Of a stretch of DNA of 64,000 nt, positions 2,237 to 36,844 are shown one piece after another. Numbering within the stretch: the stretch's first letter is position 1; each line of letters opens with the position of its first letter. Source of the stretch: an uncultured Eubacteriales bacterium (GTDB taxonomy: Bacteria > Bacillota > Clostridia > Oscillospirales > Oscillospiraceae); the NCBI GenBank assembly GCA_900544405.1, contig UQVA01000002.1, forward strand, positions 17,095 through 81,094, read 5' to 3'. A model generated the notes under the pieces. That model did no database searches. It was not told where the DNA came from and saw only the letters and a program-made list of their open reading frames with translations. The position numbers and the translations under genes were made by a program.

Positions 2237-3115
2237 ATGAATGTGAATGCCATTACGCTGCCCCAGCAGGATGCCAGGAAGCTGCTGGGTGCGGCCAACG
2301 CCGATGCAGCGCTGCTGTATCTGTATATTGCCGCAGGCAATGATCCCGGGAAGGCCGGGGAGGACCTGCGCCTGCCGGACAGCCGCCTGAACTGTGCCGG
2401 GGCCATTCTGCGTCAGCTGGGCCTGTGGCCGGAGGTGCTGCCTACGAAAATTTTGGCCGGGGAGCGACCCAATTATTCGGAAAACGATGTGCTGGATGCC
2501 ATGGAGCGGGACATGGACTTCCGGAGCCTTTACGGGGAGGTCCAGCGGCTGCTGGGCCGGAACCTGAACACCGAGGAACTGAAAATTTTGCTGGGCTTTG
2601 TGCGTTATCTGGGCCTGCCGGGGGACGTGATTTCCCTGCTGGTGTGCTACTGCAAGGAGCGGGCCAGGAAGCGGGGTTCCCTGCGGAATCCGTCTTTGCG
2701 GACCATTGAAAAGGAAGCCTATCAATGGGCAGAGCAGGGCATTGACACGCTGGAGGCTGCCTCTGCTTACATCCAGACCCAGAACCAGCGGGAGAGCCAG
2801 ATGACTTCCTTGATGTCCCTGCTGCAGATTCGTGGCCGGAACCTGACCGCAGCCGAGGAGCGCTACGCCGGGGCCTGGCTCACCATGGGCTTTGACGCCG
2901 ACGCCATTCGGGAGGCCTACGAGCGGACCTGCCTGAACACCGGCGGGCTGAACTGGGCGTACATGAACAAAATTCTCATCCGCTGGCAGCAGGCCGGGTT
3001 CCATACCCTGGAGCAGGTCCGTGCCGGGGACCAGAAGAATCTTCCCAAGGGCGCTTCCGGCCAGCTGGGCGAAGCGGAATTGGAAGCCATTCAGAGCATT
3101 TTGCAGGAGGGATAA
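2237..3115 (+). CDS. DnaD-domain replication initiation/membrane attachment protein (DnaB(Bsu)/DnaD-like)
   Basis: 292 aa; DnaD/DnaB_2 C-terminal domain pattern 'EELKILLGFVRYLGLPGDVISLLVCYC'; immediately followed by dnaI-like gene. Confidence 0.7.
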   Translation: MNVNAITLPQQDARKLLGAANADAALLYLYIAAGNDPGKAGEDLRLPDSRLNCAGAILRQLGLWPEVLPTKILAGERPNYSENDVLDAMERDMDFRSLYGEVQRLLGRNLNTEELKILLGFVRYLGLPGDVISLLVCYCKERARKRGSLRNPSLRTIEKEAYQWAEQGIDTLEAASAYIQTQNQRESQMTSLMSLLQIRGRNLTAAEERYAGAWLTMGFDADAIREAYERTCLNTGGLNWAYMNKILIRWQQAGFHTLEQVRAGDQKNLPKGASGQLGEAELEAIQSILQEG

Positions 3116-3118
3116 ACC

Positions 3119-4105
3119 ATGGCATACAGTTTGGAGGTGGTCCGCCGGGCACGGGAGCGGCTGGAGCAGCAGCGTGCCGACCGGGAATCGGAATATCGGG
3201 CCCACCTGGCGGAAGCCTATCGGGAGCAGCCCAGGCTGCGGGAAATTGACCGGCTGCTGCGGCAGACCATGGCCCAGGCGGCCCAGTGCGCCTTCCTGAA
3301 AGGGGAGGAGGGCACGGCCCTCATGGCCAAGGCCAAGGAGGCCAATCTGGCCCTGCAGGCCGAGCGCCGGGAACTGGTCAACACGTTCCCGGAGGGGTAT
3401 CTCAATGACCGGCCCGTCTGCGACAAGTGCGGCGGAACCGGGTACGTCGGCAGCCGGATGTGTTCCTGCCTAGAGGACCTGTGCCGCCAGGAACAGCGGC
3501 GGGAGTTGGCGGGCATGGGCATCCGTGCGGAGGATTTCCGGGATTTCCGGCTGGATTACTATTCCGAACAGATCGACCGGACCTACGGGGCCAGCCCCCG
3601 GATGATCATGGAGCGGAATCTGGAACGCTGCCGCCGGTTCGTCCGGGACTTCGGCGGAAAGCCGGAAAATCTGCTGTTCATCGGCAATACGGGCCTGGGC
3701 AAGACCTTCCTGTCCGCCTGCATCGCCGGAAGTGTGTCCCAGCAGGGGTTCAGCGTCAGCTATGAAAGTGCCGCACACCTGTTTTCCAAGCTGGAACGGG
3801 AGCGGTTTTCCCCCAGCGAGGAAAATAAGCAGGCGGCGGAGGCCATCCGCAATGCGGACCTGTTGATCCTGGACGACCTGGGTACGGAAATGCCCGGCCA
3901 GTTCGTCACGGCGGCCCTTTATACCCTGGTCAACGACCGCCTTATGGAGGGCAAGCCCATGATCATTTCCACCAACCTGAACATCGGGGAAGTGGCCCAG
4001 CGCTACAATCCCCAGATCGCCTCCCGCCTGCAGGGCAGCTTCACCCGGCTGACCTTCGTGGGGGAGGACATTCGCCTGATTATGAGCCGGGAGGGAAGAA
4101 GATGA
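3119..4105 (+). CDS. dnaI: Primosomal helicase loader DnaI/DnaC-like AAA+ ATPase
   Basis: 328 aa; N-terminal Zn-ribbon CDKCGGTGYV...CSC, Walker A 'GNTGLGKTFL', Walker B 'LLILDDLG'. Confidence 0.8.
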   Translation: MAYSLEVVRRARERLEQQRADRESEYRAHLAEAYREQPRLREIDRLLRQTMAQAAQCAFLKGEEGTALMAKAKEANLALQAERRELVNTFPEGYLNDRPVCDKCGGTGYVGSRMCSCLEDLCRQEQRRELAGMGIRAEDFRDFRLDYYSEQIDRTYGASPRMIMERNLERCRRFVRDFGGKPENLLFIGNTGLGKTFLSACIAGSVSQQGFSVSYESAAHLFSKLERERFSPSEENKQAAEAIRNADLLILDDLGTEMPGQFVTAALYTLVNDRLMEGKPMIISTNLNIGEVAQRYNPQIASRLQGSFTRLTFVGEDIRLIMSREGRR

Positions 4106-4755
4106 GTATTGGTGTTCTTTTTGATTTGGACGGAACCCTGCTGGACACCCTGGAGGACCTGAAAAACGCCACCAACGCCACCCTGCGTTCCTTCGGCTGC
4201 CCGGAACGGTCCCTGGAGGAGGTCCGGCAGTTCGTCGGCAACGGAGCCGGGGTGCTGATGAAGAAGGCCCTGCCCGGAAAGCCCACGGACCCGGACTGGC
4301 AGACGGCTCTGGATGCCTTTCATACCTATTACGATGCCCACTGCCGGGAAAAAACCGGTCCCTATCCCGGCGTGCCGGAGATGTTGGCGGAATTGCAAAA
4401 GCGCTATCCCGTGGCCATCGTGTCCAACAAGCCGGACAGCGCCGTGAAGCAGCTTTGCGCCTATTATTTCCCGGGGATTTTCGCCCGGGGGGAGGATGCG
4501 GACTGCCCCCGGAAGCCTGCGCCGGATATGCTCTATCAGGCCATGAGGGCCGTGGGGGCTGATGGCTGCATTTATGTGGGCGACAGCGACGTGGACATTG
4601 CCACGGCGAAAAACGCTGGTGTACCCTGTCTGAGTGTCCTGTGGGGCTTCCGGGACCGGGACTTCCTGAGGACCTCCGGGGCCACCCACTTCTGCGCCGA
4701 CCCCAGGGACCTTCCGGAAATGATCGAGAAGATGGGGGCGGAATATGGCAAATGA
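4102..4755 (+). CDS. HAD-family hydrolase (phosphoglycolate phosphatase-like)
   Basis: 217 aa; motif I 'LFDLDGTLLDT', motif IV 'VGDSDVDIATAKNAG'. Confidence 0.8.
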   Translation: MSIGVLFDLDGTLLDTLEDLKNATNATLRSFGCPERSLEEVRQFVGNGAGVLMKKALPGKPTDPDWQTALDAFHTYYDAHCREKTGPYPGVPEMLAELQKRYPVAIVSNKPDSAVKQLCAYYFPGIFARGEDADCPRKPAPDMLYQAMRAVGADGCIYVGDSDVDIATAKNAGVPCLSVLWGFRDRDFLRTSGATHFCADPRDLPEMIEKMGAEYGK

Positions 4756-5998: not shown

Positions 5999-6952
5999 TT
6001 GTCAGAAGAATACAGCGTGGCCCTGACGGATGTGGTGAAGCGGTTCCATCTGGAGGTGCTTTTTGCAGCCACGGATTACGAATCCATCCGGCTGACTGTG
6101 GCCGACGTGGCCCGTCCCGGCCTGCAGCTGGCGGGATATTTCGACCACTTTGAGCCTATGCGCTTGCAGGTCATCGGCAACGTGGAGGAAAGCTACCTGC
6201 AAAAGCTCACTGCCACCGAGCGAGCCATGATCTTTGACCGGTTCTTTTCCTATAAATGTCCTGCGCTGCTGGTGGCCCGGAATATGGAGCCGCTGCCGGA
6301 GTGCCTGGAAATGGCGAAACGCCACAACGTGACCCTCCTGCGCTCTCAGGAGGCCACCAGCACCATCGTTTCCACCATCATCGCTTACCTGACCGGTGTG
6401 CTGGCCCCCTGCATCACTCGGCATGGTGTTATGATGGAGATTTACGGCGAAGGGGTCCTGCTGCTGGGTGAAAGCGGCATGGGCAAAAGCGAAGCCGCCA
6501 TCGAATTGGTGAAGCGTGGTCACCGGCTGGTGGCCGACGATGCTGTGGAAATCCGCAAGACCTCCGAAAGCACCCTGATGGCCACGGCCCCGGAGGTGGT
6601 GCGGAATTTCGTGGAACTTCGCGGCATTGGCATCATCAACGTGGCCCAGCTGTTCGGCGCCGGTGCCGTCCGGCGGGAGGTGGACATCGATCTGGTGGTG
6701 AACATCGTTCCCTGGAACCAGAACGAAAGCTATGACCGGCTGGGCATCGAGAGCCAGTATATGGAGATCATGGGCAACAAAATTCCCATGAACACCATCC
6801 CCATCACCCCCGGCCGAAACCTGGCGGTGATCCTGGAGGTGGCGGCCATGAACAACCGCCAGCGGAAAATGGGCTACAACCCTGGCCTGGACTTCACCAA
6901 TCAGATTTCCATGCGCATGGAGCAGGAAGCGGGGTACCGACTGCCGCTATGA
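5999..6952 (+). CDS. hprK: HPr kinase/phosphorylase
   Basis: 317 aa, TTG start; 'GVLLLGESGMGKSEAAIELVKRGHRLVADDAVEI' P-loop signature. Confidence 0.9.
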   Translation: MSEEYSVALTDVVKRFHLEVLFAATDYESIRLTVADVARPGLQLAGYFDHFEPMRLQVIGNVEESYLQKLTATERAMIFDRFFSYKCPALLVARNMEPLPECLEMAKRHNVTLLRSQEATSTIVSTIIAYLTGVLAPCITRHGVMMEIYGEGVLLLGESGMGKSEAAIELVKRGHRLVADDAVEIRKTSESTLMATAPEVVRNFVELRGIGIINVAQLFGAGAVRREVDIDLVVNIVPWNQNESYDRLGIESQYMEIMGNKIPMNTIPITPGRNLAVILEVAAMNNRQRKMGYNPGLDFTNQISMRMEQEAGYRLPL

Positions 6953-7911
6953 AAGAGTTTACCATCGGAAAAAACGATGCCGGTCAGCGGCTGGACCGGT
7001 ATCTTGCCAAGGCGGTGCCGCTGCTTCCGGCATCCCTGGCCCAGAAATATATCCGCATCAAGCGCATCAAGCGCAACGGCGGCCGCTGCCAGCGGGACGA
7101 CCGGCTGGAGATCGGCGACGTTTTGCAGCTCTATATCAATGACGAGTTTTTCGATGTACCCCGGGAGGACAATGCTTACTTGACCGTGGCGGCGCCGAAG
7201 CTGAATATCGTCTACGAGGACGACCAGATCATCCTGGTGGACAAGCGGCCCGGTCTGGCTGTCCATCCCCATGATGGGGCCGAGTATGGCCGGACCCTTA
7301 TTGACCACATTCAGGCGTATCTCTACCAGAAGCGGGAGTGGAACCCCAGAGGGGAGAATTCCTTTGCCCCGGCTCTGTGCAACCGCATTGACCGGAACAC
7401 CGGCGGCATTGTCATTGCGGCCAAGACCGCCGAGGCCCTGCGGGTGATGAACCAGAAGATCAAGGACCGGGAACTGGACAAGCGGTATCTGGCCATCGTG
7501 GAGGGGACCCCCAAGCCTCAGAAGGGGACATTGAAGGGCTATCTGTTCAAGGACGCCAAGAAAAACCGGGTATTCGTGACGGATACCCCCCAGACCGGTT
7601 CCAAAAGCTGCGAGACCCGCTATGAGGTCCAGGCCAGCCGCCAGGGGCTTTCTCTGGTGGAGTGCGAGCTGATCACCGGCCGGACCCACCAGATCCGTGC
7701 CCAGTTCGCCCACGCCGGGCATCCGCTCTTAGGCGACGGCAAATACGGCAAGCTGGACAAGCGCTTCGACCGGACCTACCAGGCCCTGTATTCCTATAAA
7801 CTCACCTTCCAGTTTACCACCGACGCCGGAGCTCTGGCCTACCTGGACGGCAAGTCCTTCCAGGTCCAGAAAGTGGACTTCGTGGAGGAGTATTTTCCGG
7901 AATATCGCTGA
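6949..7911 (+). CDS. RluA-family 23S rRNA/tRNA pseudouridine synthase
   Basis: 320 aa; S4-like N-term, catalytic 'HRLDRNTGG', 'RTHQIRAQFAHAGHPLLGD'. Confidence 0.85.
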   Translation: MKEFTIGKNDAGQRLDRYLAKAVPLLPASLAQKYIRIKRIKRNGGRCQRDDRLEIGDVLQLYINDEFFDVPREDNAYLTVAAPKLNIVYEDDQIILVDKRPGLAVHPHDGAEYGRTLIDHIQAYLYQKREWNPRGENSFAPALCNRIDRNTGGIVIAAKTAEALRVMNQKIKDRELDKRYLAIVEGTPKPQKGTLKGYLFKDAKKNRVFVTDTPQTGSKSCETRYEVQASRQGLSLVECELITGRTHQIRAQFAHAGHPLLGDGKYGKLDKRFDRTYQALYSYKLTFQFTTDAGALAYLDGKSFQVQKVDFVEEYFPEYR

Positions 7912-7950
7912 CATCCCAGGCAATTCCCGAAAGGGGAATTGCCTGGGATG
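7912..7950 (+). terminator. Perfect 16-bp inverted repeat immediately after pseudouridine synthase stop
   Basis: atcccaggcaattccc-gaaa-gggaattgcctgggat; no strong T-tract, boundary of AT-rich islet. Confidence 0.5.
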
Positions 7951-8051
7951 TTCATATAGTGTGAACTTTATCGCTTTTGCACAATCCGTTTCCGGATTTT
8001 TCAAAATCTGAGATTCTCATTTGTTCATTGTTACAATTGTTCAAAAAGCTA

Positions 8052-8079
8052 TTGCATTATCTTGTTTGTTCTGTATAAT
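8052..8079 (+). promoter_or_regulatory. sigma-A promoter (TTGCAT-16-TATAAT) for LRR surface protein gene
   Basis: -35 8052-8057, -10 8074-8079; RBS aaagggaagggg before ATG 8116. Confidence 0.5.
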
Positions 8080-8115
8080 TGTAGGTGAATTCAGAAAGGG
8101 AAGGGGTTATTCTCT

Positions 8116-10788
8116 ATGAAAACCAGGAAACTACTTCTTACGTTGCTGTTTTGCGTCATGCTGATTACAGCCCTGCTTCCAACGGCGGCCAATGCTGCAG
8201 AGGTTGCATCCGGAAGCTGCGGTGAAAATGCAGTCTGGTCTTTGGACGAAAACGGAACATTGACCATTTCCGGACAGGGGAAAATGGAATGGTCTGCTGA
8301 TCCATGGCTTTCCTACAAATCACAAATTAAGAAAATTGTGATTTGCCCAGGCATTACTGAAATCAAGCATGGTGCATTTATATATCTGAGCAGTGTTACG
8401 GATGTTTCCATCCCGGACAGTGTAACGAAGATCGGCGGGTATGCGTTTGCGGAATGTAACGGCCTTACCAGTATAAGACTTCCGGACACGGTTACAGAAA
8501 TTGATTCCTATGCATTCAATGGATGTCAGAATCTGTCGTCCATTACATTGCCGAAGAATTTAAAGACGATTGGTGATTATGTGTTTACGGATTGCTTTCA
8601 GCTGACCGATGTTTCCATTCCGAATGGTGTTGTCACTATCGGAAATTTCGCCTTTTGTCGCTGCAAAGCGCTGACGGAGATCCGACTTCCCGACAGCGTA
8701 ACAACGATTGGAACAGGGGCGTTTTCTGATTGCGAACAGCTTGAATCTGTCAAACTTCCTGCAGGTATTTCAAGCATCAATCAAAGCCTTTTTGAAGACT
8801 GTAAGCGCTTGAATAATGTTGTAATTCCGGACGGAGTGATCAGCATTGGCGAATGTGCATTTTCCGACTGTGAGAACCTGGAAAATATCACACTTCCGGG
8901 AAATCTGGAAACCATTGGATTCCGGGCGTTTAATAACTGTACGGCATTGAAAGCGATGACGTTTCCGGAAAAACTGAAAAAATTAAGCTGGGAAATTTTC
9001 GCTGCTTGCACCAATCTGCGTGAGCTTCATTTCACGGGCAGTATGCCGACGCTTGACGAGAAGGCTTTTAAAACGGCAGGATTTGTTGCTTTCTATCCGG
9101 TGAACGACAGCAGTTATGCTGATGCCGACAACTGCGGCGGAAATGTGATTTGGCTTCCGGAAGGCACTGCCTATCCGACATATTTCGGAACATGGCCTGT
9201 TTCCTGGACGATTTATCAGGATGGTGTGCTGACGATTATGAAATCGGATTTGTGGTACAGCGACAGCCGAATGGACGGCTTTACAAAACGATGCCCATGG
9301 TATCAGTATGATGGAATCATCAAAACTGTTGTCATAGAGCCAGGGGCAACGGTTATTGCGGAAGATGCGTTTGTAAACCTTGAGAGCTTGACAAATGTTA
9401 CCATCCCAGATACCGTCACACGAATCAGCTCTGGTGCTTTTGAAGGCTGTGTCAATTTGACGAGCATTACGATTCCGGGCAGCGTAGAGCATATTTCTAA
9501 CAAGGCATTTAAGAATTGTACGAGCCTTTCTTCTGTTGAACTTTCTAATGGTTTGCAATCTATCGGGTTGTCTGCATTTTATATGTGCAGCAGTCTGAAG
9601 GAAATTACCTTTCCGGAGACTTTGAGCCAAATTGAGGATCATGCCTTTTCGTACTGCAGGAGTATGAAGCAGGTGTGCTTTACCGGTGACTTGCCGACAG
9701 TGGGAAATATGGCATTTTATGAGGTGACAGCCACAGCCTATTACCCGGACGGGAATTCCACATACAATAAAGAGAATATCGATGCACAAGGATTTTATGG
9801 GAGTAATTTGACCTGGTGCGCCACGAACTATGGCCGCAGCGGCTGGGTCCAGAAGAATGGTGCTTGGTATTATTACGAGAACAACACTCCCGTTACCGGC
9901 TGGAAAACTATCGACGGTGCCCGGTACTATTTCAACACTTCCGGTATCATGCAGACCGGCTGGGTAAAGGACGGAATTAACTGGTACTACATGAACGGCT
10001 CCGGCGTGATGAAGACCGGTTGGCAGAAGCTTGCTGACGGAAACTGGTACTATTTCTATGAAGACGGACACATGGCCTGCAATGAAACCGTGAACATCGG
10101 CGGCTCGAATTACACGTTCAACGGTTCCGGTATCTGGGTGCAGAAAAAGAACGGTTGGGAGCAGAAGGACGGTGCCTGGTATTACTATGCAAATGGCGAA
10201 AAAGCCACCGGCTGGAAGCAACTGTCTGACGGAAATTGGTACTATTTCAACAGCGACGGGAAAATGCAGACCGGTTGGCTGAAACTGGGGAAATATTGGT
10301 ACTATTTGAACGGTTCCGGCATCATGGTCACAGGCTGGCAGAAGCTTGCTGACGGGAACTGGTACTATTTCTATCCCGGCGGAACCATGGCCTGCAACGA
10401 GACGCTGAACATCAACGGCGTTGATTATACCTTCAACGCCTCCGGTATCTGGGTGCAGGATCAGACGGTGAGAAGGAACGGCTGGGAGCAGAAGGACGGC
10501 GCTTGGTACTACTATGTGAATGGTGCAAAAGCCACCGGCTGGAAGCAGCTGCCGGACGGCAAGTGGTACTATTTCAACAGCGACGGGAAAATGCAGACCG
10601 GTTGGCTGAAACTTGGAAAATACTGGTACTATCTGAACGGTTCCGGTATTATGGTCACAGGCTGGCAGAAGCTGCCCGACGGGAACTGGTATTATTTCTA
10701 CCCCGGCGGGACCATGGCCTGCAATGAAACCGTGAACATCGGCGGCGTTGACTACACCTTCAATTCCTCCGGTATATGGGTGCATTGA
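8116..10788 (+). CDS. Secreted BspA-type leucine-rich-repeat (LRR_5) surface protein with C-terminal choline/cell-wall-binding repeats
   Basis: 890 aa; signal peptide MKTRKLLLTLLFCVMLITALLPTAANA; >15 LRR_5 units (IPDSVTxIGxxAFxxCxxLxSIxLP); C-terminal GW..DG.WYYF..G.M.TGW repeats in three ~105-aa tandem copies; markedly AT-richer than flanks. Confidence 0.85.
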   Translation: MKTRKLLLTLLFCVMLITALLPTAANAAEVASGSCGENAVWSLDENGTLTISGQGKMEWSADPWLSYKSQIKKIVICPGITEIKHGAFIYLSSVTDVSIPDSVTKIGGYAFAECNGLTSIRLPDTVTEIDSYAFNGCQNLSSITLPKNLKTIGDYVFTDCFQLTDVSIPNGVVTIGNFAFCRCKALTEIRLPDSVTTIGTGAFSDCEQLESVKLPAGISSINQSLFEDCKRLNNVVIPDGVISIGECAFSDCENLENITLPGNLETIGFRAFNNCTALKAMTFPEKLKKLSWEIFAACTNLRELHFTGSMPTLDEKAFKTAGFVAFYPVNDSSYADADNCGGNVIWLPEGTAYPTYFGTWPVSWTIYQDGVLTIMKSDLWYSDSRMDGFTKRCPWYQYDGIIKTVVIEPGATVIAEDAFVNLESLTNVTIPDTVTRISSGAFEGCVNLTSITIPGSVEHISNKAFKNCTSLSSVELSNGLQSIGLSAFYMCSSLKEITFPETLSQIEDHAFSYCRSMKQVCFTGDLPTVGNMAFYEVTATAYYPDGNSTYNKENIDAQGFYGSNLTWCATNYGRSGWVQKNGAWYYYENNTPVTGWKTIDGARYYFNTSGIMQTGWVKDGINWYYMNGSGVMKTGWQKLADGNWYYFYEDGHMACNETVNIGGSNYTFNGSGIWVQKKNGWEQKDGAWYYYANGEKATGWKQLSDGNWYYFNSDGKMQTGWLKLGKYWYYLNGSGIMVTGWQKLADGNWYYFYPGGTMACNETLNINGVDYTFNASGIWVQDQTVRRNGWEQKDGAWYYYVNGAKATGWKQLPDGKWYYFNSDGKMQTGWLKLGKYWYYLNGSGIMVTGWQKLPDGNWYYFYPGGTMACNETVNIGGVDYTFNSSGIWVH

Positions 10789-10818
10789 TTCGAAAAAAGG
10801 AAGCAGTGTGAATAGAGA

Positions 10819-10853
10819 AACCAGCCGGGATTCGATCGGGCCCCGGCTGGTTT
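10819..10853 (+). terminator. Rho-independent terminator after LRR gene
   Basis: ccagccggg...cccggctgg hairpin + ttttt. Confidence 0.6.
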
Positions 10854-11025
10854 TTGCACTTATGCGGGTATAGGCGTGAAGTCAACGGTTATACAAATAA
10901 TCAGAAACACCAAAATCGATGTTACCGGTGTGAAAAGCTCCTGTTGGGTTTCTCCAACAGGGGCTTGAAAAGAGAGAAACAGAAAGACCCCGGCGACTTT
11001 CTTACGAAAATCGCCGGGGTTTACC

Positions 11026-11101
11026 TGGTGGACTTGAAGGGATTCGAACCCTCGACCCCCACAATGCGAATGTGGTGCGCTCCCAACTGCGCTACAAGCC
11101 C
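11026..11101 (-). tRNA. tRNA-Ala (anticodon CGC), CCA encoded
   Basis: rc = GGGCTTGTAGCTCAG-like: acceptor GGGCTTG/CAAGTCC with G3:U70 Ala identity pair, anticodon loop TTCGCAT, T-loop GGTTCGAATCC. Confidence 0.9.
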
Positions 11102-11143
11102 ATCTCACGATCCATGCTATTATAGCGCCGGATCGTGGGTTTG

Positions 11144-12529
11144 TCAAGCCTCATTCTGGACCTGTTTTTCCCTGGCGGCCTGTCGGTCGAAGGCGTGCAT
11201 CCAGTCGGCGGCGTAGAAGTAGATGATGAACAGCACGCTGCTGGCGAACCAGGTGATGGGGTAGGCCATGGAGACGGTGTGCAATTCATTGACGTGCTGC
11301 ATGGCGATGGAAATGTAAGTGACCCGCAGCAGGCACCAGCACCCCAGCATGATGAACATGGGTACGGTGGCTTTACCTGCGCCCCGGAGAATGCCCGCAA
11401 TGCAGTGAGACAGGGCCAGCAGACAATAGAACAGGCAGATGGTCCGCATGTGGGCGGCGCCGTAGGCCACCACCTCCGGGGAATCGTTGAAAATGGAGAT
11501 CAGCTGGGGAGCCAGCAAATAGGAGGCCACGCCGATGAGCTCCGCCATGCTGACGCTGCAAATGACCGCAAAGCGCACGCCCTTTTTCACCCGGCCATAC
11601 TGCTGGGCACCCAGATTCTGGCCCACGAAGGTGGACAGGGCCTGGGCAAAGCAGGTGATAGGCAGGAAGGCGAAGCCTTCGATCTTGGAATAGGAGCCGC
11701 AGCCGGCCATGGCGGCCTTGCCGAAGCTGTTGATGTTGGTCTGGACCACCAGATTGGCCATGGCGATCACGCTGTTCTGCACGCCGGAGGGCAGGCCGTA
11801 GCGGACGATGTCCTTGAAGCTGTCCCAGTGATAGCGGATCTTCTTCAGCTCCACCCGGTAGGGCTCCTTGGTGGTCAGCAGCAGCCGGAAGCACAATAGG
11901 GCGCTGACGCCCTGGGAAATGGTGGTGGCGATGGCCGCAGACCCCACGCCCCAGCGGAACACCGCCACGAACAGCAGGTCCAGCACCACATTGACAAAGG
12001 ACGAGAAAATCAGGTAGTACAGCGGGTGGCGGCTGTCGCCCACGGCGTGGAGAATGCCCACCATGATGTTGTACATGACCGTAAAAATGGCTCCGCAGAA
12101 ATAATAGCGGAAATAGGAAATGGACTGGGGCAGTACGTCCTCCGGGGTGTCCATCCAGCGAAGGATCGTCGGCGTGAAGGCCACGCCCAAAGCCGTCAGG
12201 AGAATGCCCGCCGTCAGGCCGAAGGCCACGTCCGTATGGATGGCCCGGCGCATGGAATCGTAGTCCTTTGCTCCGTAGCACCGGGCGATGATGACGCCGG
12301 CACCCATGGCTACGCCGTTGAAGAAGCCAATCATCATAAAAATGAGGCTGCCGGAGGAGCTGACCGCCGCCAGGGCGTTGTCGCCCAAGTAGTTGCCCAC
12401 TACCCAGGAATCGAATGTGTTATAAAGCTGCTGGAACACGTTGCCCAGGAACACGGGCAGGGCGAAAAGCAGCATACTTTTCCAAATGGAACCTTCCGTC
12501 AGCGAACTGCCGCTGGATCTCAAAACCAT
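11144..12529 (-). CDS. MATE family efflux transporter
   Basis: 461 aa; 'LLFALPVFLGNVFQQLYNTFDSWVVGNYLGDNALAAV' MATE N-terminus, 12 TM. Confidence 0.85.
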   Translation of the reverse strand: MVLRSSGSSLTEGSIWKSMLLFALPVFLGNVFQQLYNTFDSWVVGNYLGDNALAAVSSSGSLIFMMIGFFNGVAMGAGVIIARCYGAKDYDSMRRAIHTDVAFGLTAGILLTALGVAFTPTILRWMDTPEDVLPQSISYFRYYFCGAIFTVMYNIMVGILHAVGDSRHPLYYLIFSSFVNVVLDLLFVAVFRWGVGSAAIATTISQGVSALLCFRLLLTTKEPYRVELKKIRYHWDSFKDIVRYGLPSGVQNSVIAMANLVVQTNINSFGKAAMAGCGSYSKIEGFAFLPITCFAQALSTFVGQNLGAQQYGRVKKGVRFAVICSVSMAELIGVASYLLAPQLISIFNDSPEVVAYGAAHMRTICLFYCLLALSHCIAGILRGAGKATVPMFIMLGCWCLLRVTYISIAMQHVNELHTVSMAYPITWFASSVLFIIYFYAADWMHAFDRQAAREKQVQNEA

Positions 12530-12566
12530 ACACTCCTTTCCAATTGTTGCAAATGCAACGATTGCT

Positions 12567-12594
12567 ATTATACTCCGGATTTCAGAAATGTCAA
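12567..12594 (-). promoter_or_regulatory. sigma-A promoter for MATE gene (TTGACA-16-TATAAT on minus strand)
   Basis: minus-strand -35 12589-12594, -10 12567-12572; palindrome ttgcaaatgcaa (12547-12558) between -10 and start codon. Confidence 0.45.
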
Positions 12595-12617
12595 TAGGCG
12601 GGAGAAATGGGAATTTC

Positions 12618-12646
12618 CTGTTGAAAAACCGGCAGCGTTCTGGTAT
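12618..12646 (+). promoter_or_regulatory. sigma-A promoter (TTGAAA-17-TATAAT) for E2-like gene
   Basis: divergent from MATE promoter. Confidence 0.45.
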
Positions 12647-12685
12647 AATTCAAAATTGGTATTTCAGAAGAAAGAGGGAAGACCA

Positions 12686-13567
12686 ATGGCAAAAAAGAAA
12701 CACGGCGACCGGAGAGACGGCATTTGGCTCCGGGACCTGCCTGCAATGAACCAAATCATGCCCACCATCATGCCCAACCGGGCGGATAACGAGGCATACA
12801 TCGACGTGGACGTGGATCTGCGTCCCCTGGAGGCCTATCTGGCCAGGAAAAACGAAGGCCGCACCGAGGATAAGATCACGTTCTTCCATGTCATCACGGC
12901 GGCCATCGGCAAGGCGTTCGTCCTGCGGCCCCGGATGAATCGTTTCATCTGCAACCATAAGGTTTACCAGCGGCGGAACATTACCGTGGCCTTCGTGGTG
13001 AAGAAAAAGTTCGAGGACAAGTCCGAGGAAGGACTGGCCTTCCTGGAATTTGAGCCGGAGGACACCATCGACACCTTCCACGATAAGATCATGCACATCA
13101 TTCATCAGACCCGCCGGAACGACGTGAAGGACGCCTCCTCAGGGGCCATGGACGTGCTCATCAGTATGCCCCACTTTATGACCGTGGCGGCGGTGAAGCT
13201 CATCCGCTGGCTGGATCAGTTCGGTGTTCTGCCGGATTCCATCATCGGCTCGGACCCCAACCATGCGGCCATTCTGCTGAGCAATCTGGGCTCCATCGGC
13301 CTGGAGGGCGGCTATCACCATCTGGTGAATTGGGGGACCAACTCCTGCTTCGTGGTGGTGGGCAAGAAGTTCCGCAAGGCGGATTATGACGAAAACGGCA
13401 ACGCCGACGTTCACGAGGTCATTCCCCTGGGCATCACCCTGGACGAGCGTATCGCCGACGGCTATTATTATTCCGGCACGGTGGCCCTGCTGAAAGAACT
13501 GCTGGAGCATCCGGAACTGCTGGAAATGCCCGCCAACACCCCGGTGGAGTATTCCATCAAACGGTAA
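12686..13567 (+). CDS. 2-oxoacid dehydrogenase E2 catalytic-domain-like protein (stand-alone; catalytic motif DERxxDG instead of DHRxxDG)
   Basis: 294 aa from ATG at 12686 with RBS agaaagaggga; C-terminal 'LGITLDERIADGYYYSGTVALLKELLEHPELL' aligns to E2/CAT 'LSLSxDHRVIDG...FL..L...LE.P..LL'. Confidence 0.65.
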   Translation: MAKKKHGDRRDGIWLRDLPAMNQIMPTIMPNRADNEAYIDVDVDLRPLEAYLARKNEGRTEDKITFFHVITAAIGKAFVLRPRMNRFICNHKVYQRRNITVAFVVKKKFEDKSEEGLAFLEFEPEDTIDTFHDKIMHIIHQTRRNDVKDASSGAMDVLISMPHFMTVAAVKLIRWLDQFGVLPDSIIGSDPNHAAILLSNLGSIGLEGGYHHLVNWGTNSCFVVVGKKFRKADYDENGNADVHEVIPLGITLDERIADGYYYSGTVALLKELLEHPELLEMPANTPVEYSIKR

Positions 13568-13612: not shown

Positions 13613-14551
13613 TCAGCCCACATAATCGTGGCCGCAGAGGGTCCACATGGTATCGATCTGGTCGTAAATTTCATAATAATCCCAGGTCTTTTCGGACCGG
13701 GTGCGGCTGTTGGAATCGTTGATGATGAGTTTCCCGTCCGAATCCATTCCGGCAATGACGATGAAGTGACCGTCGGTGGTGAAGGCACCGGGACCCACCA
13801 GGCAGATGATGACGTGTCCGCCTTCCAACTCCTCCTTCACGGAGGCGTAGCCCTTATCGATCTCCCACACGTCCAGACCCAGATCCTCACCGCCCTGATA
13901 AATCAGGGACCAGTAGGAGCCGTTGCCGGGGGCGCAGTAGCCATTGTCCAGGGCAAACTGGATGATCTTATCCGGGGTCATCTTCGGGTCGCCGCCGGTG
14001 AGATAGTAGGCGGCCATGGAGAGAGCCGTGGGACCGCAGGCAGTCAGACCGGCTACGTCGTTGCCATAAATGGTGTAGCCCCAGCGCTTGTCCCATTGCA
14101 GGAACAGGGGGACCTTGGAAAGGTCCGTGCCGGACAGATCGACGGTATGCTCCATGTCCTTTTCCAGGGGATAACTCAGCACGAAGTCCTCCGTCTCGGG
14201 ATTCCGGGCAAGCAGTTTCATCAGGCTCTCCGGGTAGTCCGCCAGAGACAGGCCGTTCTGGGCAGCAAAGGCGGAAACGGTGGTCTCCGCCCGTTCCTCA
14301 GGCGTGGTGGGAGCGGTAGGCTCCGTGGTGGCCTCGGTGGTCGGTTCGGTAGTGGCTTCCGTGGTCGGTTGGGTGGTGGCTTGGGTCGTTGCCTGGGTGG
14401 TGGGTGCGGTGGTACTGCCTGTGACGGGCGCAGGGTCCTTGGCAGGCAGAATGGTGGCCAGCCGGTCCTTGAACAGGAAGCCCAGTTCCCCAATCAAGAC
14501 CAAGACCAGTACCACCAGGATACCGATGAGAATGCCGCTGTTCTTTTTCAT
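13613..14551 (-). CDS. Membrane-anchored peptidase C39-like (YvpB/BtrH-type) domain protein with Thr/Pro-rich linker
   Basis: 312 aa; N-terminal TM helix, TTQATTQATTQPTTEATTEPTTEATTEPT linker, 'QWDKRWGYTIYGNDVAGLTACGPTALSMAAYYLTG' catalytic Cys region, downstream His 'DGHFIVIAG'. Confidence 0.7.
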   Translation of the reverse strand: MKKNSGILIGILVVLVLVLIGELGFLFKDRLATILPAKDPAPVTGSTTAPTTQATTQATTQPTTEATTEPTTEATTEPTAPTTPEERAETTVSAFAAQNGLSLADYPESLMKLLARNPETEDFVLSYPLEKDMEHTVDLSGTDLSKVPLFLQWDKRWGYTIYGNDVAGLTACGPTALSMAAYYLTGGDPKMTPDKIIQFALDNGYCAPGNGSYWSLIYQGGEDLGLDVWEIDKGYASVKEELEGGHVIICLVGPGAFTTDGHFIVIAGMDSDGKLIINDSNSRTRSEKTWDYYEIYDQIDTMWTLCGHDYVG

Positions 14552-14652: not shown

Positions 14653-15383
14653 ATGACACGTTTTTTCGTATCAGAAGGGGAATTGGGTCTGAACCGGGCG
14701 GTTTTGACCGGAGAAAATCTGGCCCATGCCAAGGTCCTGCGGCTGAAAGCAGGGGAGAAGCTGCTGCTCTGCGACGGAGCGGGCCGGGAAAGCCTGGCCA
14801 CCGTCCGGGAGGTGGGAGCCAATGAAATACTGCTGGATCTGGAGCCGCCGGTGCCTTCCGCTTCCGAAGCGGCGGTGCGGGTCAGTGTATATATGGCCTT
14901 TTCCAAGGGGGACAAGCTGGAACACGTCATTCAGAAGGCCACGGAATTGGGGGCCTACGAGATCGTGGCCTTTCCCAGCGCCCGGTGCGTGTCCCGCCCC
15001 GATGAAAAAAGCCTGAAAAAGAAGCTGGAAGCTGGCAGAAAATTGCTGCCTCGGCGGCGGAGCAGTCCGGCCGGGGGCGCATCCCGCAGGTGGTGGTCTG
15101 CGATTCCTATGCCGCTGCTCTGCACCGGGGCGCACAGGCCGACAAGGCCCTGCTGTTCTACGAAAACGAGCAGGCAACGACCCTGAAAATGGCCCTGCAG
15201 TCCGGCCCTTACAGGTCCGTGAGCCTGCTGACCGGACCGGAAGGGGGCTTGGAGGAGCAGGAGGTGGCGGAGGCCCGGAAAATGGGCTTTGCCGTCTGCA
15301 CCTTGGGAAAGCGCATTCTGCGCTGCGAGACTGCCCCGCTGTGCGCCCTGTCCGCCGTCATGTACGACGCCGGAGAGTTCTGA
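14653..15383 (+). pseudogene. rsmE: 16S rRNA (uracil1498-N3)-methyltransferase RsmE, interrupted by a -1 frameshift near 15030
   Basis: N-terminal part (14653-~15030) and C-terminal part (to 15383, '...RIPQVVVCDSYAAAL...GPEGGLEEQEV...') are both RsmE but in different frames; junction at direct repeat aagctggaagctgg where ...KKLE(R)WQKI... requires one extra nucleotide. Confidence 0.7.
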
Positions 15384-15404
15384 TATTTTCTGAAAATGCA
15401 CCCC

Positions 15405-15445
15405 CGATGCCGTTTTTCGGTATCGGGGGTGTCTGTTTTTTGCTT
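15405..15445. terminator. Bidirectional terminator
   Basis: acccccgat...atcgggggt hairpin followed by ctgtttttt. Confidence 0.6.
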
Positions 15446-16875
15446 TAGAATGTGCCGCTCTGACGGATGCGGAGATCGCCGGACACGCTGTCCATGCTGA
15501 TCTTGCAGGCACCGTCCAGGTAGCGCATGGTGTCGTCCTGGTAAGTGGTGGCGAAATCGCTGTACAGCTTGCCGCTGAGACTGTCCAGATTGGCGGTAAA
15601 GCCCGTGTTTTCCGGCAGGGCCACCACCAGTTGCCCGGAAACGCTGTCCAGGTCGATGGAGTTGGGAGCGGCGGTGAGGGTCAGAGTGCAGTCTCCGGAG
15701 ACGGTATCGACCTTGGCCGTGCGGCAGGAGCCGGAGAAATCCAGTTCACCGGAAACATTGCTCACCGTCAGGTCGGTTACGTCTATGTCCGTCAGGGTCA
15801 TGTCGCCGGAAACATTGTCGATGCTGATGTCCTGAGCGGCCCACCCGGCGGGGACCGTCACCACCAGGTCCTTTCGGCGGACGTTCACGCTGATGGGGAT
15901 TTTGTTGGTCTGGGTGTAGGACAAGATCAGGGTGTCACCGGACTGGCTCCAGACCATGGGGAATTTGGCATCGTCTTCGCCGGTCAGGCGGAAGGAGATG
16001 TCCGTGGTGTTCTCCGACGGCTCCACACGGATACTCCCGGCCACCCAGTGGATGGCCAGCCGGGAGACTTCCTCCGCCGATACGGAGCCGGAGGGGGAGG
16101 GAATGCCGTCCACCTGGGAAGAGGTCCAGATGCAGAAAAGGTCGCTTATGGGACCGGAGGTACTGCTAAAGCCAACGCTAAAGACCAACGCCGCGACCAG
16201 CGCCAGGGCCAGCAGGGTGAAGATTACGATCCGCACCACTCCGGAGGCTGTTCTGCCCCTTTGAATACACAGGTCCCAGACGGCCATGACCAGGCCGGAA
16301 ACGCAGCCCGTCAGGGGAAAGACGAGCCAGGTAAGCCACCAGGCACGGGTAGCAAAGCTGACAGCCAGATAGAAAGCCAGGCCGGTGATTCCAATCAGGC
16401 TTCGCACGGCCTGTCGGGGGGCGCTGACTTCTTTTCCGGTGGTTTCCGACTCCGAATTGCCTTTCCCGGGGCTGGCCAGCATTCCCAGGGCCACGCCCAG
16501 CGCCACCATCACCAGCAGCAGGCACAGTCCCACCTCATCCTGAATGAGAAACAGGGGCAGGGGACAGAGAATGTAGCACACGATGGACAGCACACGCAGC
16601 AGCGGCTGCCATTTGGCGTCTACCACGCCTTTCTGAACCGGCTGGGGGACCGCCCCAGTGGCTTTGGGCGCAGCGCCGCCGGCGCTGCCCAGAATTTCGT
16701 TGATGTCTCCGATGCCGGAAATGGCCAGCCGATAGGCTGCCTCCGGAGTTTTGCCCTGGGCAATCAGGTCGTCATAGCGATCCAGGGTATTTTGCAGAAT
16801 TTCCTGCTGAATGTCTCCGGCGTTTTCCGCACCGGCAAACAGCAGCTCCACATAGCGTATCAGTTGTTCCCGCAT
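15445..16875 (-). CDS. Membrane protein with N-terminal DUF1700-like segment and C-terminal DUF4097 (putative adhesin/beta-helix) domain
   Basis: 476 aa; N-terminal 'RYVELLFAGAENAGDIQQEIL...', central TM helices, C-terminal repetitive VSGD/LSG beta-strand repeats typical of DUF4097; downstream of PadR regulator. Confidence 0.7.
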   Translation of the reverse strand: MREQLIRYVELLFAGAENAGDIQQEILQNTLDRYDDLIAQGKTPEAAYRLAISGIGDINEILGSAGGAAPKATGAVPQPVQKGVVDAKWQPLLRVLSIVCYILCPLPLFLIQDEVGLCLLLVMVALGVALGMLASPGKGNSESETTGKEVSAPRQAVRSLIGITGLAFYLAVSFATRAWWLTWLVFPLTGCVSGLVMAVWDLCIQRGRTASGVVRIVIFTLLALALVAALVFSVGFSSTSGPISDLFCIWTSSQVDGIPSPSGSVSAEEVSRLAIHWVAGSIRVEPSENTTDISFRLTGEDDAKFPMVWSQSGDTLILSYTQTNKIPISVNVRRKDLVVTVPAGWAAQDISIDNVSGDMTLTDIDVTDLTVSNVSGELDFSGSCRTAKVDTVSGDCTLTLTAAPNSIDLDSVSGQLVVALPENTGFTANLDSLSGKLYSDFATTYQDDTMRYLDGACKISMDSVSGDLRIRQSGTF

Positions 16876-26990: not shown

Positions 26991-27197
26991 TGAATACCTC
27001 GCTTTATTCTATTTCTGCCCCGGTCATACCCGTGACATTCTTAGTCTAATTATATCTGCCCCGGCAAAAAAAAGCAACCGGTTGCACAAGAAAATATCGA
27101 CAAAAAACATTCGTCCAATTCGGCCTATTCCGGCAACTGCCACATAAATCCCGCCCGGATGGAAAATTGACCGGGAGAAATTGCAACTAGCCGAAAT

Positions 27198-27227
27198 TAT
27201 GTTTGCATTTCTACTTGTAAGAATGGC
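27198..27227 (+). promoter_or_regulatory. Candidate uvrA promoter (TTGTAA-17-TAAAAT) with possible degenerate LexA/Cheo-like box cgaaattatgtttg just upstream
   Basis: sequence gccgaaattatgtttgcatttctacttgtaagaatggcgagactgtggtaaaat; GAAA-N4-GTTT resembles GAAC-N4-GTTC but is imperfect. Confidence 0.25.
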
Positions 27228-27278
27228 GAGACTGTGGTAAAATAAGAGAATCGAAACCAAGAGAATTGGAGAGCGGAA

Positions 27279-30104
27279 ATGAACGATACCATTCGCATCC
27301 GGGGGGCCAGGGAAAACAACCTGAAAAATGTGGACCTGACCATTCCGAGAGATAAATTGGTGGTCTTTACGGGCCTGTCCGGCTCCGGAAAGTCCAGCCT
27401 TGCCTTCGACACCATTTATGCCGAGGGCCAGCGGCGCTATGTGGAGAGCCTCAGCTCCTACGCCCGGCAATTCCTGGGGCAAATGGACAAGCCGGACGTG
27501 GACGCCATCGACGGCCTGTCCCCGGCCATCTCCATCGACCAGAAAACAACATCCAAGAACCCCCGCTCCACCGTGGGCACGGTGACGGAAATTTACGACT
27601 ACCTCCGGCTCCTCTGGGCCAGAGTGGGCGTGCCTCACTGCCCCAAGTGCGGCAAGGAAATTCGCCGCCAGACCGTCGACCAGATCGTGGACCGGGTGGA
27701 GCAGCTGGAACCGGGGACAAAGTTCCTGGTGCTTTCTCCGGTGATCCGGGGGAAGAAGGGCGAGCATGCCAAGGTCTTTGAGGACGCCCGGAAGGGGGGC
27801 TTCGCCCGTGTCCGGCTGGACGGTATTCTTTACGACCTGAACGAGCAAATTCCCTGCGAGAAAAACAAAAAGCACACCATTGAACTGGTGGTGGACCGGC
27901 TGGTGATGAAGGAAGGCCAGCGCCGCCGCTTGACGGACTCCATCGAGACGGCCTGTTCCCACTCCGGCGGCCTTGTGACCATCGAACTGCCGGGGACCGG
28001 GGAGGAACTGACCTTTTCCCAGAATTACGCCTGCGAGGACTGCGGCATCAGCCTGACGGAGTTGGAGCCGAGAATGTTTTCCTTCAACAATCCGGCGGGA
28101 GCCTGCCCGGTGTGTACCGGCCTGGGCTTCCAGCTGGAACCCAGCGCCGACCTGGTCATCCCGGACCGGAACAAGAGCATCCTGGAGGGGGCCATTCAGG
28201 CCTCCGGCTGGAACAGCGTCCGGACGGATTCCATTTTCCGGATGTATTTTGAAGCGCTGGCTCAGAAATATCATTTTTCCCTGTCCGTTCCCGTGAAGGA
28301 CCTGCCGGAAAGTGCGCTGGACGTGATTCTCCACGGCACCCGTGGGGAAAAGCTGAAAATGACCTACAACCGGGGCAACGGCATGGGGGTCCTGGAACAG
28401 CCCTTTGAGGGCATCCTGCCCAATATCGCCCGCCGGTTTCGGGAGACCCAGTCCGATGCGGCCCGGAAGGAACTGGAGGAGTGTATGTCCACGGCACCCT
28501 GTCCCGCCTGCCACGGCCAGCGGCTCTCGGAGATCGCCCGTGCGGTGACGGTGGGGGGCCTGGGCATCATGGATTTCTGCTCTATGAGTGTTTCCAAAGA
28601 GCTGGAATTTATGAAAGATCTGAAACTGGAGGGCAATCTGGCCCTCATCGCCCAGCAGATCGTCCGGGAGATTCGCTCCCGGCTGCAATTCCTGTCGGAT
28701 GTGGGCCTGCAATACCTGACCCTGAACCGGGCGGCGGCCACTCTGTCCGGCGGCGAGAGCCAGCGTATCCGGCTGGCCACCCAGATCGGTTCCTCCCTGA
28801 TGGGTGTTCTGTATATTCTTGACGAGCCTTCCATTGGCCTTCATCAGCGGGACAACGACCGGCTTCTGGAGACGTTGAAGCACCTGCGGGACCTGGGCAA
28901 CACGCTGATCGTGGTGGAGCATGACGAGGACACCATGCGTGCGGCGGATTTCATCGTGGACGTGGGCCCCGGAGCGGGCAGCCACGGCGGCGAAATTGTT
29001 GCGGCGGGGACCTTGCAGGATATTATTGCCAATCCCCGGTCCATCACGGGCCAGTACCTGTCCGGCGTGAAGAAAATTCCCGTTCCCACCACCCGCCGCC
29101 CCGGCAACGGCAAGTTCCTGACGGTCCGGGGAGCCACGGAAAATAATCTGAAAAACATCGACGTTTCCATTCCTTTGGGGACCTTCACCTGCGTCACCGG
29201 TGTGTCTGGCTCCGGCAAGTCCAGCCTGGTGGGAGAGGTGCTGAACAAGACCCTCCTGAGCCGATTGAATCACGCACGGGTCCGGCCCGGTGCCTGCAAA
29301 TGCGTGGAGGGCCTGGAAAATCTGGACAAGGTCATTGACATTGACCAAAGCCCCATCGGCCGGACGCCCCGGTCCAACCCAGCCACCTACACGGGCCTGT
29401 TCAACGATATTCGGGACCTGTTTGCCTCCACGGCGGACGCCAAAGCCCGGGGCTACGGCCCGGGACGGTTCTCTTTCAACGTGAAGGGCGGCCGGTGCGA
29501 GGCCTGCTGCGGCGACGGCCTGGTGAAGATCGAAATGCACTTCCTGGCGGACGTGTACGTGCCCTGTGACGTGTGCCACGGCCAGCGGTACAACCGGGAG
29601 ACCCTGGAGGTTCATTATAAGGGCAAAAATATCGCCCAGGTGCTGGACATGACTGCTGAGGAAGCGGTGGATTTTTTCGAGAATCTGCCGAAAATTCGCA
29701 GAAAGGCCCAGACTTTGGTGGAAGTGGGTCTGGGCTACGTGAAGCTGGGTCAATCCAGCACCACCCTGTCCGGCGGCGAGGCCCAGCGGGTGAAGCTGGC
29801 CACGGAGCTGGCCAGAGTATCCACGGGCCGGACCATTTACGTGCTGGACGAGCCGACGACCGGTCTCCATTCGGCGGATGTGCATAAGCTTATCGACGTG
29901 CTGCAGCAGCTTGTGGAGGCGGGCAATACGGTGCTGGTCATCGAGCACAATCTGGACATGATCAAGACTGCCGACTATCTCATCGACCTGGGTCCCGAAG
30001 GGGGCGACGGCGGCGGCACGCTGGTAGCGGCGGGAACGCCGGAGGAAGTGGCTGCCGTGCAGGAAAGCTACACGGGCCAGTATCTGAAAAAGTACCTGAA
30101 ATAA
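27279..30104 (+). CDS. uvrA: Excinuclease ABC subunit A
   Basis: 941 aa; two ABC ATPase modules '[14 protein letters not shown]' and '[11 protein letters not shown]', zinc fingers CPKCG / CEACCGDG. Confidence 0.9.
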
Positions 30105-36821: not shown

Positions 36822-36844
36822 ATTGGGCAGGGGAGATCAGGAAC

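Follow-up and report, generated by a model that had tools for sequence, protein, structure and literature searches.

PcpA (CbpN) of Streptococcus pneumoniae consists of an N-terminal leucine-rich repeat (LRR) module and a C-terminal choline-binding module for non-covalent attachment to the wall, and has been reported to occur in nearly every clinical isolate (PMC7924319). Allelic variation has been described for pspC, which has 11 allelic groups, and for pspA, which is mosaic (PMC7924319). The window analysed here, a stretch of 64,000 nucleotides from an uncultured Eubacteriales bacterium of the Oscillospiraceae (contig UQVA01000002.1 of assembly GCA_900544405.1), contains between rluA and a tRNA-Ala(CGC) gene an open reading frame (ORF), hereafter called the LRR gene, for a predicted surface protein of 890 amino acids. 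Its predicted product joins BspA-type LRR_5 repeats to a C-terminal tail of choline-binding-type repeats. The closest characterised protein is PcpA, and the locus behaviour is closest to that of pspC and pspA. BspA-type LRR_5 proteins are typically surface adhesins.

The locus is read here as a fixed-site chimera encoding a Sec-secreted LRR surface protein, the imported LRR modules of which are exchanged by homologous recombination, a reading to which a probability of roughly 0.7 is given. The two BspA-type LRR_5 solenoids would form the ligand-binding head, and the C-terminal repeats, of the choline-binding or clostridial-toxin CROP type, would probably hold the protein non-covalently on the cell wall. 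The promoter, the 5' untranslated region, the first five codons and the repeat tail would be old resident DNA, while the LRR cassette (8132-9863), foreign-like in codon usage and apparently young within the species, would represent modules imported by horizontal transfer. Homologous recombination in the conserved arms and the module-end motifs would then have spread these modules and swapped them from strain to strain, leaving the population polymorphic for an adhesin that binds a host or partner. Exchange of the head with retention of the anchor would fit selection on the binding target, or on recognition by host immunity or phages.

Domain architecture of the LRR protein

The combination of BspA-type LRR_5 repeats with choline-binding-type repeats, proposed in an earlier note on this DNA, was borne out by Pfam, with scores well above the cut-offs. 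LRR_5 (PF13306) matched in three stretches (E = 5e-107, 353 bits against a cut-off of 27.7), and from the PF01473/PF19127 families Choline_bind_3 (E = 9e-49, 164 bits against 27) and Choline_bind_1 (E = 2e-46, 154 bits against 20.5) were found. On inspection of the sequence, 13 regular LRR_5 units of 23 amino acids, with the pattern V.IP..V..IG..AF..C..L, were recognised in two blocks, and about 15 repeats in the tail, 12 of them GW units and 3 long units. Each LRR module ends in a conserved (F/Y)YPxxxSxY motif. The tail is built of three super-repeats (9828-10127, 10143-10442 and 10470-10769) of 300-327 nt each, visible as three DNA copies of about 300 nt, and every super-repeat contains four GW-type repeats of 20 amino acids and one long repeat. 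Read by eye, the N-terminus resembles a Sec signal peptide, with MKTRK, a 17-residue hydrophobic core and ANA preceding AE at the predicted cleavage site. Neither an LPXTG motif nor a lipobox was seen in the 890 amino acids. The positions of the modules are given in Table 1.

Among PDB sequences, the LRR domain of PcpA (4cp6) matched residues 118-222 (E = 6e-21), and the gut-bacterial LRR_5 structures 4fs7 (E = 1e-58), 4gt6 (E = 3e-54) and 4h09 were also matched. The tail matched the CROPs of TcdA and the CbpF and CbpJ structures, the best match of residues 560-861 being the TcdA CROPs (E = 8e-58). CROP and glucan-binding repeats bind carbohydrates, not choline. The tail resembles these carbohydrate-binding CROPs at least as much as it does the pneumococcal modules and is matched best by them, suggesting that the anchor ligand may be a wall glycan rather than phosphocholine. 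Judged by these similarities, the name choline-binding may be ill-suited to the ligand of the repeat tail. The NCBIfam models of PspA and PspC matched the repeat tail only and stayed below their cut-offs (PspA 204 against 850 bits, PspC 189 against 700, PspC-related 185 against 850), and the equivalog model of HupY/LrrG reached 173 bits against a cut-off of 1250.

A nonsense codon, W596* (at about 9901-9903), was observed in A-type genes from two runs (L104/L109 from ERZ28659152 and L115 from SRR12234630). The product would have both LRR modules without the wall-binding tail and could be a released form or a null allele. Gene calls of 811 and 834 amino acids were considered as disrupted signal peptides and rejected, the ORFs being intact and the differences reflecting the start codon chosen by the gene caller.

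Three alleles of the LRR gene within the species

Conspecific contigs were gathered by searching for exact copies of the LRR protein, of RluA in several variants and of the MATE transporter encoded beyond the tRNA gene. About 35 samples were informative, with contig flanks 97-100 % identical to the window. A single metagenome DNA scan added only two further contigs of A-type (or A/B-type). A 7 kb portion of the window (6000-13000) was 100 % identical to an ENA human-gut scaffold (ERZ28582214 scaffold_58).

An LRR gene was present in every conspecific contig reaching the site, in at least three builds. Thus the claim that the locus is strain-variable holds for the content of the modules; the presence of an LRR gene is constant. 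Allele A, the form found in the window (890 amino acids, at most 12 amino acid differences), occurred in 29 samples, allele B (643 amino acids) in 2 and allele C (880 amino acids) in 4, frequencies which are biased towards A because the contigs were found by exact-protein look-ups. Allele B (ENA ERZ28570193 and NCBI GCA_003555845.1) matches the window up to 9127, that is, through the promoter, the signal peptide and LRR module 1 (LRR1). Allele C (ERZ27302978, GCA_964310205.1 and two Logan runs) matches up to 8131, codon 5, and again from 9864, throughout the repeat tail. The region of the putative promoter and ribosome-binding site is common to all three alleles.

In two independent assemblies of allele B, homology with allele A ends at 9127 and restarts at 11021, 5 nt beyond the 3' end of tRNA-Ala. 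The A/B junction falls inside the conserved (F/Y)YPxxxSxY module-end motif. In allele B, LRR1 is followed by a Big_2 tail and then by 7.5 kb of extra genes, which extend up to the 3' end of the tRNA. This gene block encodes an HTH_36 protein weakly similar to replication initiators of phages and plasmids, a 99-amino-acid protein, two unannotated proteins of membrane-protein size (380-392 amino acids), an ABC ATPase, a 246-amino-acid protein, an ECF sigma factor and a fragment of ParE. In allele C, the span between 8131 and 9864 is occupied by another signal peptide and by an LRR_5 block with only 26-34 % protein identity to that of A. Allele A is thus a three-part mosaic, with LRR1 common to B in almost identical form, LRR module 2 (LRR2) unique and the tail common to C.

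Two further observations were made on these contigs. In the Logan contig L121 (ERR11570360), positions 2716-4744 contain a C-type LRR ORF of about 1.3 kb followed by unrelated DNA with a TetR-family gene on the opposite strand; the contig may represent a fourth arrangement of the locus, or it may be a short chimera. In the B-type contig L095, a B-specific segment beside tRNA-Ala (about 14030-14175, minus strand) contains a TTGACA-17-TAGAAT promoter, about 90 nt of sequence and a GC hairpin followed by six T's, and may be a small RNA gene, with no match in Rfam.

Base composition and codon usage

An AT-rich region had been described at the LRR gene, and the two 1-kb windows covering 8001-9000 and 9001-10000 do have the lowest GC values anywhere in the 64 kb (0.431 and 0.472, z = -6.4 and -4.8). 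The remaining 61 windows have a GC content of 0.589 ± 0.025 with a minimum of 0.530, and the overall mean is 58-59 %. A recount of G+C in 8281-8340 gave 21, not the 22 given before.

Codon usage was compared segment by segment with that of 30 genes of the window, in which the GC content at third codon positions (GC3) is 0.773 ± 0.038, with a minimum of 0.639. In allele A, GC3 was 0.463 in LRR1 (z = -8.2) and 0.510 in LRR2 (z = -6.9), and it was 0.477 in the LRR block of allele C (z = -7.8). The repeat tails of A and C had GC3 of 0.718-0.727 (0.718 in A; z = -1.5 to -1.2) and the Big_2 tail of B 0.775 (z = 0.0), with intermediate values in the extra genes of B (0.59-0.74). From its amino acid content the LRR cassette would be expected to have a GC3 of 0.77, and its Karlin B was 0.66-0.72 compared with 0.27 ± 0.10 for the host. 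The predicted departure of GC and codon usage from the flanks was therefore found in the LRR cassette (GC3 0.46-0.51 against 0.773). For the whole gene, a GC content of 0.553 was predicted from the amino acid content and 0.479 was observed, so that codon choice bears most of the deficit. The repeat tail has a GC content of 0.52 overall, with about 0.536 predicted from its amino acids, and its low GC is only an effect of amino acid composition. Since the cassette is atypical and the tail host-like, the foreign-looking islet is the LRR cassette alone, and the compositional edges of the cassette coincide with the recombination breakpoints.

Several long ORFs of low GC3 (about 0.55-0.64) and up to 1740 amino acids occur elsewhere in the window (52386-57608, 27024-29948, 48636-50639 and 59794-61899 on the minus strand and 36818-40609 on the plus strand). 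They were considered as a compositional control for surface proteins and rejected, having no Pfam match and being antisense shadows of real genes.

Age of the A cassette

Diversity was assessed in 11 distinct A haplotypes which had been chosen independently of the LRR protein. At four-fold degenerate sites, nucleotide diversity was 0.046 in hprK, 0.048 in rluA, 0.042 in the repeat tail and 0.042 in the MATE gene, compared with 0.0095 in LRR1 and 0.0031 in LRR2, which means that the A cassette has about one seventh of the neutral-site diversity of the flanks and the tail. In a sliding window the trough was confined to 8200-9800. Segregating four-fold sites numbered 5 of 262 in the cassette and 90 of 682 elsewhere (Fisher p = 1e-8). 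The low neutral diversity indicates that the common ancestor of the A cassette is much more recent than that of the surrounding DNA, including the gene's own tail. This fits a recent arrival of the A cassette, or a sweep, followed by spread over strain backgrounds via recombination in the conserved arms. The C cassettes of two samples differed by 2.6 %, compared with 3.5 % in their flanks; judged from this one contig pair, C may be an older resident allele.

Related species and the search for a donor

The best relatives of RluA were mostly found in metagenome-assembled genomes labelled Faecousia sp., which places the bacterium of the window among the Oscillospiraceae as a Faecousia-like member. 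The rpmB-hprK-rluA block is conserved in all 80 representatives of related species, and the DNA following rluA differs. Neither the LRR gene, nor tRNA-Ala with the MATE gene, nor any LRR gene was found downstream of rluA in these species (0 of 80), which agrees with the expectation that the gene would not be conserved at this locus in relatives and implies that it is species-specific at this site. Homology to the nearest species (L001, 93 % nucleotide identity) ends at the rluA stop codon; another species (L061) has ddl and murC separating rluA from tRNA-Ala. From these comparisons the end of rluA appears to be a general synteny break in the genus. The synteny of rluA and tRNA-Ala across species was uninformative in the form originally planned, the downstream DNA being different in all 80 representatives.

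Across the same loci (L001-L080; window 5999-7911), RluA has 84-89 % and the adjacent HprK 64-74 % identity to the window. The gap is partly a selection bias, the loci having been picked by RluA similarity, yet it is still large.

When the full protein was the query, identity above 41 % was reached by allele B alone (88 % over LRR1), and with LRR2 only, nothing but its own fragment (98 %) exceeded 49 %. The full-length query was unsuitable for ranking homologues, as long multi-repeat proteins swamped the list; the module-only query had the same outcome. Self-matches aside, LRR2 is most similar to P0145 (40 % identity), which is encoded inside an integrative conjugative element (L129, 3984-15263). 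This element, in a host of about 35 % GC, also encodes an integrase, MazE, RepA_N, TopoIII, TraG, Maff2 and TrbL. Two PHROG families match the LRR cassette strongly, and LRR_5 proteins with family-level similarity are found in gut phages and on plasmids. LRR_5 genes thus do travel on mobile elements. A phage or plasmid as the vector of this particular cassette was considered and rejected, the matches in phage and plasmid collections being at the family level only (25-36 % identity).

Probable acquisition of the LRR cassette and its alternatives

Horizontal acquisition, as the earlier note proposed, is probable for the LRR cassette, in view of its foreign-like codon usage; it does not extend to an islet reaching from hairpin to tRNA, and no donor was found. 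Several points weigh against the reading of the locus as an imported and exchanged head on a resident anchor. Outside the species nothing exceeded 49 % identity in 5.8 billion protein clusters. The predictions of secretion, wall binding and adhesion rest on family membership. The low diversity of the A cassette could be explained by a selective sweep of an older allele. One short contig (L127 from ERZ779896, 1053 nt, coverage 1.45x) has an LRR1 only 97 % identical and is the most divergent of the A/B contigs, representing either a rarer cassette lineage or sequencing error. All of the comparison sequences are metagenome assemblies, and the exact-protein look-ups inflate the frequency of A. Finally, a stand-alone LRR_5 gene in another high-GC genome (L130, 7001-7837) has a GC3 of 0.545 compared with 0.74-0.88 in its neighbours, so AT-richness could be a property of the family rather than proof of transfer here, and the shift may be general for LRR_5 genes of high-GC Clostridia; either high-GC hosts habitually import genes of the LRR_5 family or the family is intrinsically AT-biased.

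The last point leads to an explanation without acquisition, in which LRR_5 coding DNA would be intrinsically AT-rich, through amino acid content or through codon selection for slow translation and solenoid folding, and the alleles would be old and under balancing selection. It draws on the equal GC3 deficit of that unrelated LRR_5 gene, on the lack of a donor in the very large databases searched and on the divergence of the C cassettes, which is near that of their flanks. However, amino acid content covers only about 0.045 of the GC deficit of 0.12. Long-term balancing selection predicts more segregating neutral sites in the A cassette than in its own tail, the reverse of the roughly 7-fold deficit seen. 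The LRR blocks of A and C are no more alike than LRR_5 proteins of unrelated organisms, and the gene is missing from this position in the 80 related species. An origin without transfer is therefore regarded as unlikely, although it has to be taken seriously.

A more speculative possibility, given distinctly little weight, is that the site between rluA and tRNA-Ala is a dedicated cassette holder, in which a resident promoter with a 5' arm of five codons and a resident 3' arm for the wall anchor have been retained to accept unrelated LRR heads. These heads would come from mobile elements or from silent copies elsewhere in the genome and would enter by recombination, with the (F/Y)YPxxxSxY motifs as internal splice points. 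If true, an uncultured gut commensal would have a modular system for switching adhesins, possibly even within a strain.

The earlier note had described the whole of 7912-11143 as an islet bounded by a hairpin and the tRNA, and the corresponding explanation is that an integrase put this DNA at the 3' end of tRNA-Ala, with the hairpin as the far end. The 3' end of the tRNA does face the gene, there is a GC dip over the span, and allele B contains debris of mobile elements (the HTH_36 replication-initiator-like protein and the ParE fragment) in DNA which stops 5 nt from the tRNA 3' end. Thus the tRNA gene as an integration target is supported to the extent that variable DNA ends beside it in allele B. 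The boundaries of composition, recombination and diversity in allele A, however, are internal to the gene, at 8131/8132, 9127/9128 and 9863/9864. The upstream region, which had been counted as part of the islet, is host-like DNA common to the alleles and apparently old, with diversity similar to that of the flanks, and the same applies to the repeat tail, the codon usage of which is that of the host. No integrase (tyrosine or serine recombinase) or remnant of one was found in the window, the stretch from rluA to the tRNA included, or in the 8.4 kb of B including the ORFs within its non-coding part. A duplicate of the tRNA 3' end, which had been suggested as a possible attachment site, was found neither in the window nor in allele B: a search pattern of 25 nt from that end, allowing 3 mismatches at most, matched once in the window and once in L095. 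Meaningful flanking direct repeats were likewise absent from alleles A and B. The hairpin, moreover, occupies the position of an rluA terminator. Insertion of a tRNA-targeted islet is therefore largely refuted for allele A and very unlikely for the locus. The tRNA-proximal side is read as having once received mobile DNA, since decayed, the current polymorphism arising via homologous recombination and not site-specific integration.

Programmed antigenic variation within a cell, with silent LRR cassettes copied in by gene conversion and the 5' end and tail serving as arms, would account for the geometry of an expression site, in which unrelated cassettes lie between a precise shared 5' arm (promoter and five codons) and a shared 3' arm. 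However, the 64-kb window contains neither sequence of B or C type nor a second LRR_5 copy, and no recombinase or invertase is found nearby. Because the A cassette is near-invariant over about 29 samples, frequent switching fits poorly, and the chance that such a system operates here is considered slight. That the alleles are artefacts of chimeric metagenome contigs or of mis-assembly of repeat-rich DNA, for which it may be said that only metagenome assemblies were compared, that many short contigs break within the repeat tail and that L121 is possibly chimeric, is scarcely credible, as identical breakpoints occur in independent samples and assemblers (B in two, C in four) and the ORFs run uninterrupted across the junctions (643, 880 and 890 amino acids).

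Layout and signals of the locus

The LRR gene is the sole gene from rluA to tRNA-Ala, in agreement with the earlier description of a single cargo gene. Upstream of it lies the hprK-rluA operon, and beyond tRNA-Ala a gene for a MATE transporter, as identified with Pfam. The features of the locus are collected in Table 1.

Table 1 Features at the LRR locus between rluA and tRNA-Ala, in positions of the 64-kb window
Feature	Position	Strand	Remarks
Perfect inverted repeat, 18-bp arms, 5-nt loop	7911..7951	+	Directly 3' of rluA stop
Putative LRR-gene promoter: TTGCAT, 16 nt, extended -10 TGTATAAT	8052..8079	+	Read by eye
Putative ribosome-binding site GGGAAGGGG	~8098-8106	+	Read by eye
Predicted surface-protein gene, allele A, 890 amino acids: signal peptide, two LRR_5 modules, repeat tail	8116..10788	+	
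Predicted signal peptide, amino acids 1-27, cleavage after ANA	8116..8196	+	Sequence inspection
LRR cassette, foreign-like codon usage	8132..9863	+	Diversity trough; replaced whole by unrelated block in allele C
LRR module 1, amino acids 28-337: N-cap (W41...), ~10 LRR_5 units of 23 amino acids, C-cap ending FYPVNDSSY	8197..9126	+	
LRR module 2, amino acids 338-582: N-cap (W364...), ~5 LRR_5 units, C-cap with YYPDGNSTY	9127..9861	+	
Segment exchanged for 8.4 kb in allele B	9128..11020	+	A/B comparison
Putative wall-binding tail, amino acids 583-890, three super-repeats	9862..10788	+	Common to alleles A and C
Terminator-like hairpin of LRR gene, 12-bp arms then T-run	10818..10853	+	
Intrinsic terminator of tRNA-Ala	10987..11020	-	Allele-specific; different hairpin in allele B
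tRNA-Ala(CGC)	11026..11101	-	3' end toward LRR gene; right-hand edge of variable region
Perfect sigma-70 consensus promoter of tRNA-Ala, TTGACA-17-TATAAT	11119..11147	-	12/12 consensus

The inverted repeat at the rluA stop is perfect, as stated previously; its arms are 18 bp, not 16 (7911-7928 and 7934-7951, with 100 % complementarity), and the stop codon shares its last base with the repeat. The folding energy is -39.7 kcal/mol (z = -6.5). The hairpin occurs as a single copy in the window, is kept in alleles A, B and C and is absent from the sister species L001. A strong GC-rich hairpin right behind the rluA stop was found in about half of 32 related species, with a different sequence in each and a T-tail in most. 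Because related species carry an rluA terminator hairpin at this position, the hairpin is read as probably the terminator or 3' stabiliser of the hprK-rluA operon, though it is without a proper T-tail. Nothing about it marks the end of an island.

Upstream of the LRR gene, the only promoter listed by a consensus scan was a weaker site at 8008-8037. The tRNA-Ala gene is a solitary tRNA gene with its own promoter and its own terminator. When the locus and alleles B and C were scanned with Rfam, nothing except tRNAs was found.

Two genes further downstream also vary. The rsmE gene, encoding a 16S rRNA methyltransferase (14653-15386, plus strand), has a frameshift after about residue 125 in the window and was called as 177 and 64 amino acids; it is intact, with 243 amino acids, in most conspecific contigs. 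The frameshift is either a real pseudogene in the window strain or an assembly error. A DUF4097 gene (15445-16875, minus strand) is whole in the window and split into two ORFs in four conspecific contigs (L089, L098, L105 and L106).

Comparison with known systems

Members of Faecousia and related gut Oscillospiraceae are abundant and mostly uncultured, and to our knowledge nothing is known of how they attach. The locus provides a concrete candidate adhesin for Faecousia-like bacteria. It would be a clear example of a protein in which only the ligand-binding head is imported and exchanged and the wall anchor is native, and its three alleles with their defined breakpoints are usable as a strain marker in metagenomes. 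It also serves as a warning that a GC trough beside a tRNA gene is insufficient to call an integrated island, the trough here being a sub-genic cassette.

PcpA of S. pneumoniae has the same two-part logic, with an LRR head and a choline-binding-type tail. It differs in that the protein described here has two LRR_5 modules and a tail of three times four short and one long repeats, matched best by CROPs. There is no orthology between the two. PcpA is near-universal in isolates, whereas whole modules are swapped at this locus, and the host here is a high-GC gut anaerobe, unlike the pneumococcus. The pspC (cbpA) and pspA loci are alike in having a fixed site, a variable head exchanged between strains and a choline-binding tail which is kept. 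Their heads are coiled coils, whereas those found here are LRR solenoids, and here the codon usage of the head is sharply unlike that of the host. Iannelli and colleagues reportedly described, in 2002, a different anchor in some pspC alleles, which would parallel the Big_2 tail of allele B.

BspA-type LRR_5 proteins (BspA of Tannerella forsythia, LrrA/TpLRR of Treponema, HupY/LrrG and the proteins of structures 4fs7, 4gt6 and 4h09) share the same repeat family with the LRR protein, and nothing but the repeat family; no ligand is transferable from them. The CROP and glucan-binding domains of TcdA and TcdB of Clostridioides difficile, of TcsH and of streptococcal glucansucrases have a similar pattern of short and long repeats; the toxin or enzyme domain of these proteins is absent from the protein described here. 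Tracts of strain-specific DNA abutting a tRNA 3' end, and the remnants of mobile elements in allele B, recall tRNA-linked genomic islands, although the locus is without an integrase, an attachment-site duplication or an island-wide compositional signature.

The locus is thus a case of ordinary surface-protein variability, of the modular mosaic type known from Gram-positive adhesins, and not a new kind of system. The resolution of composition, breakpoints and diversity at the sub-genic level is neat, yet no surprise to a specialist.

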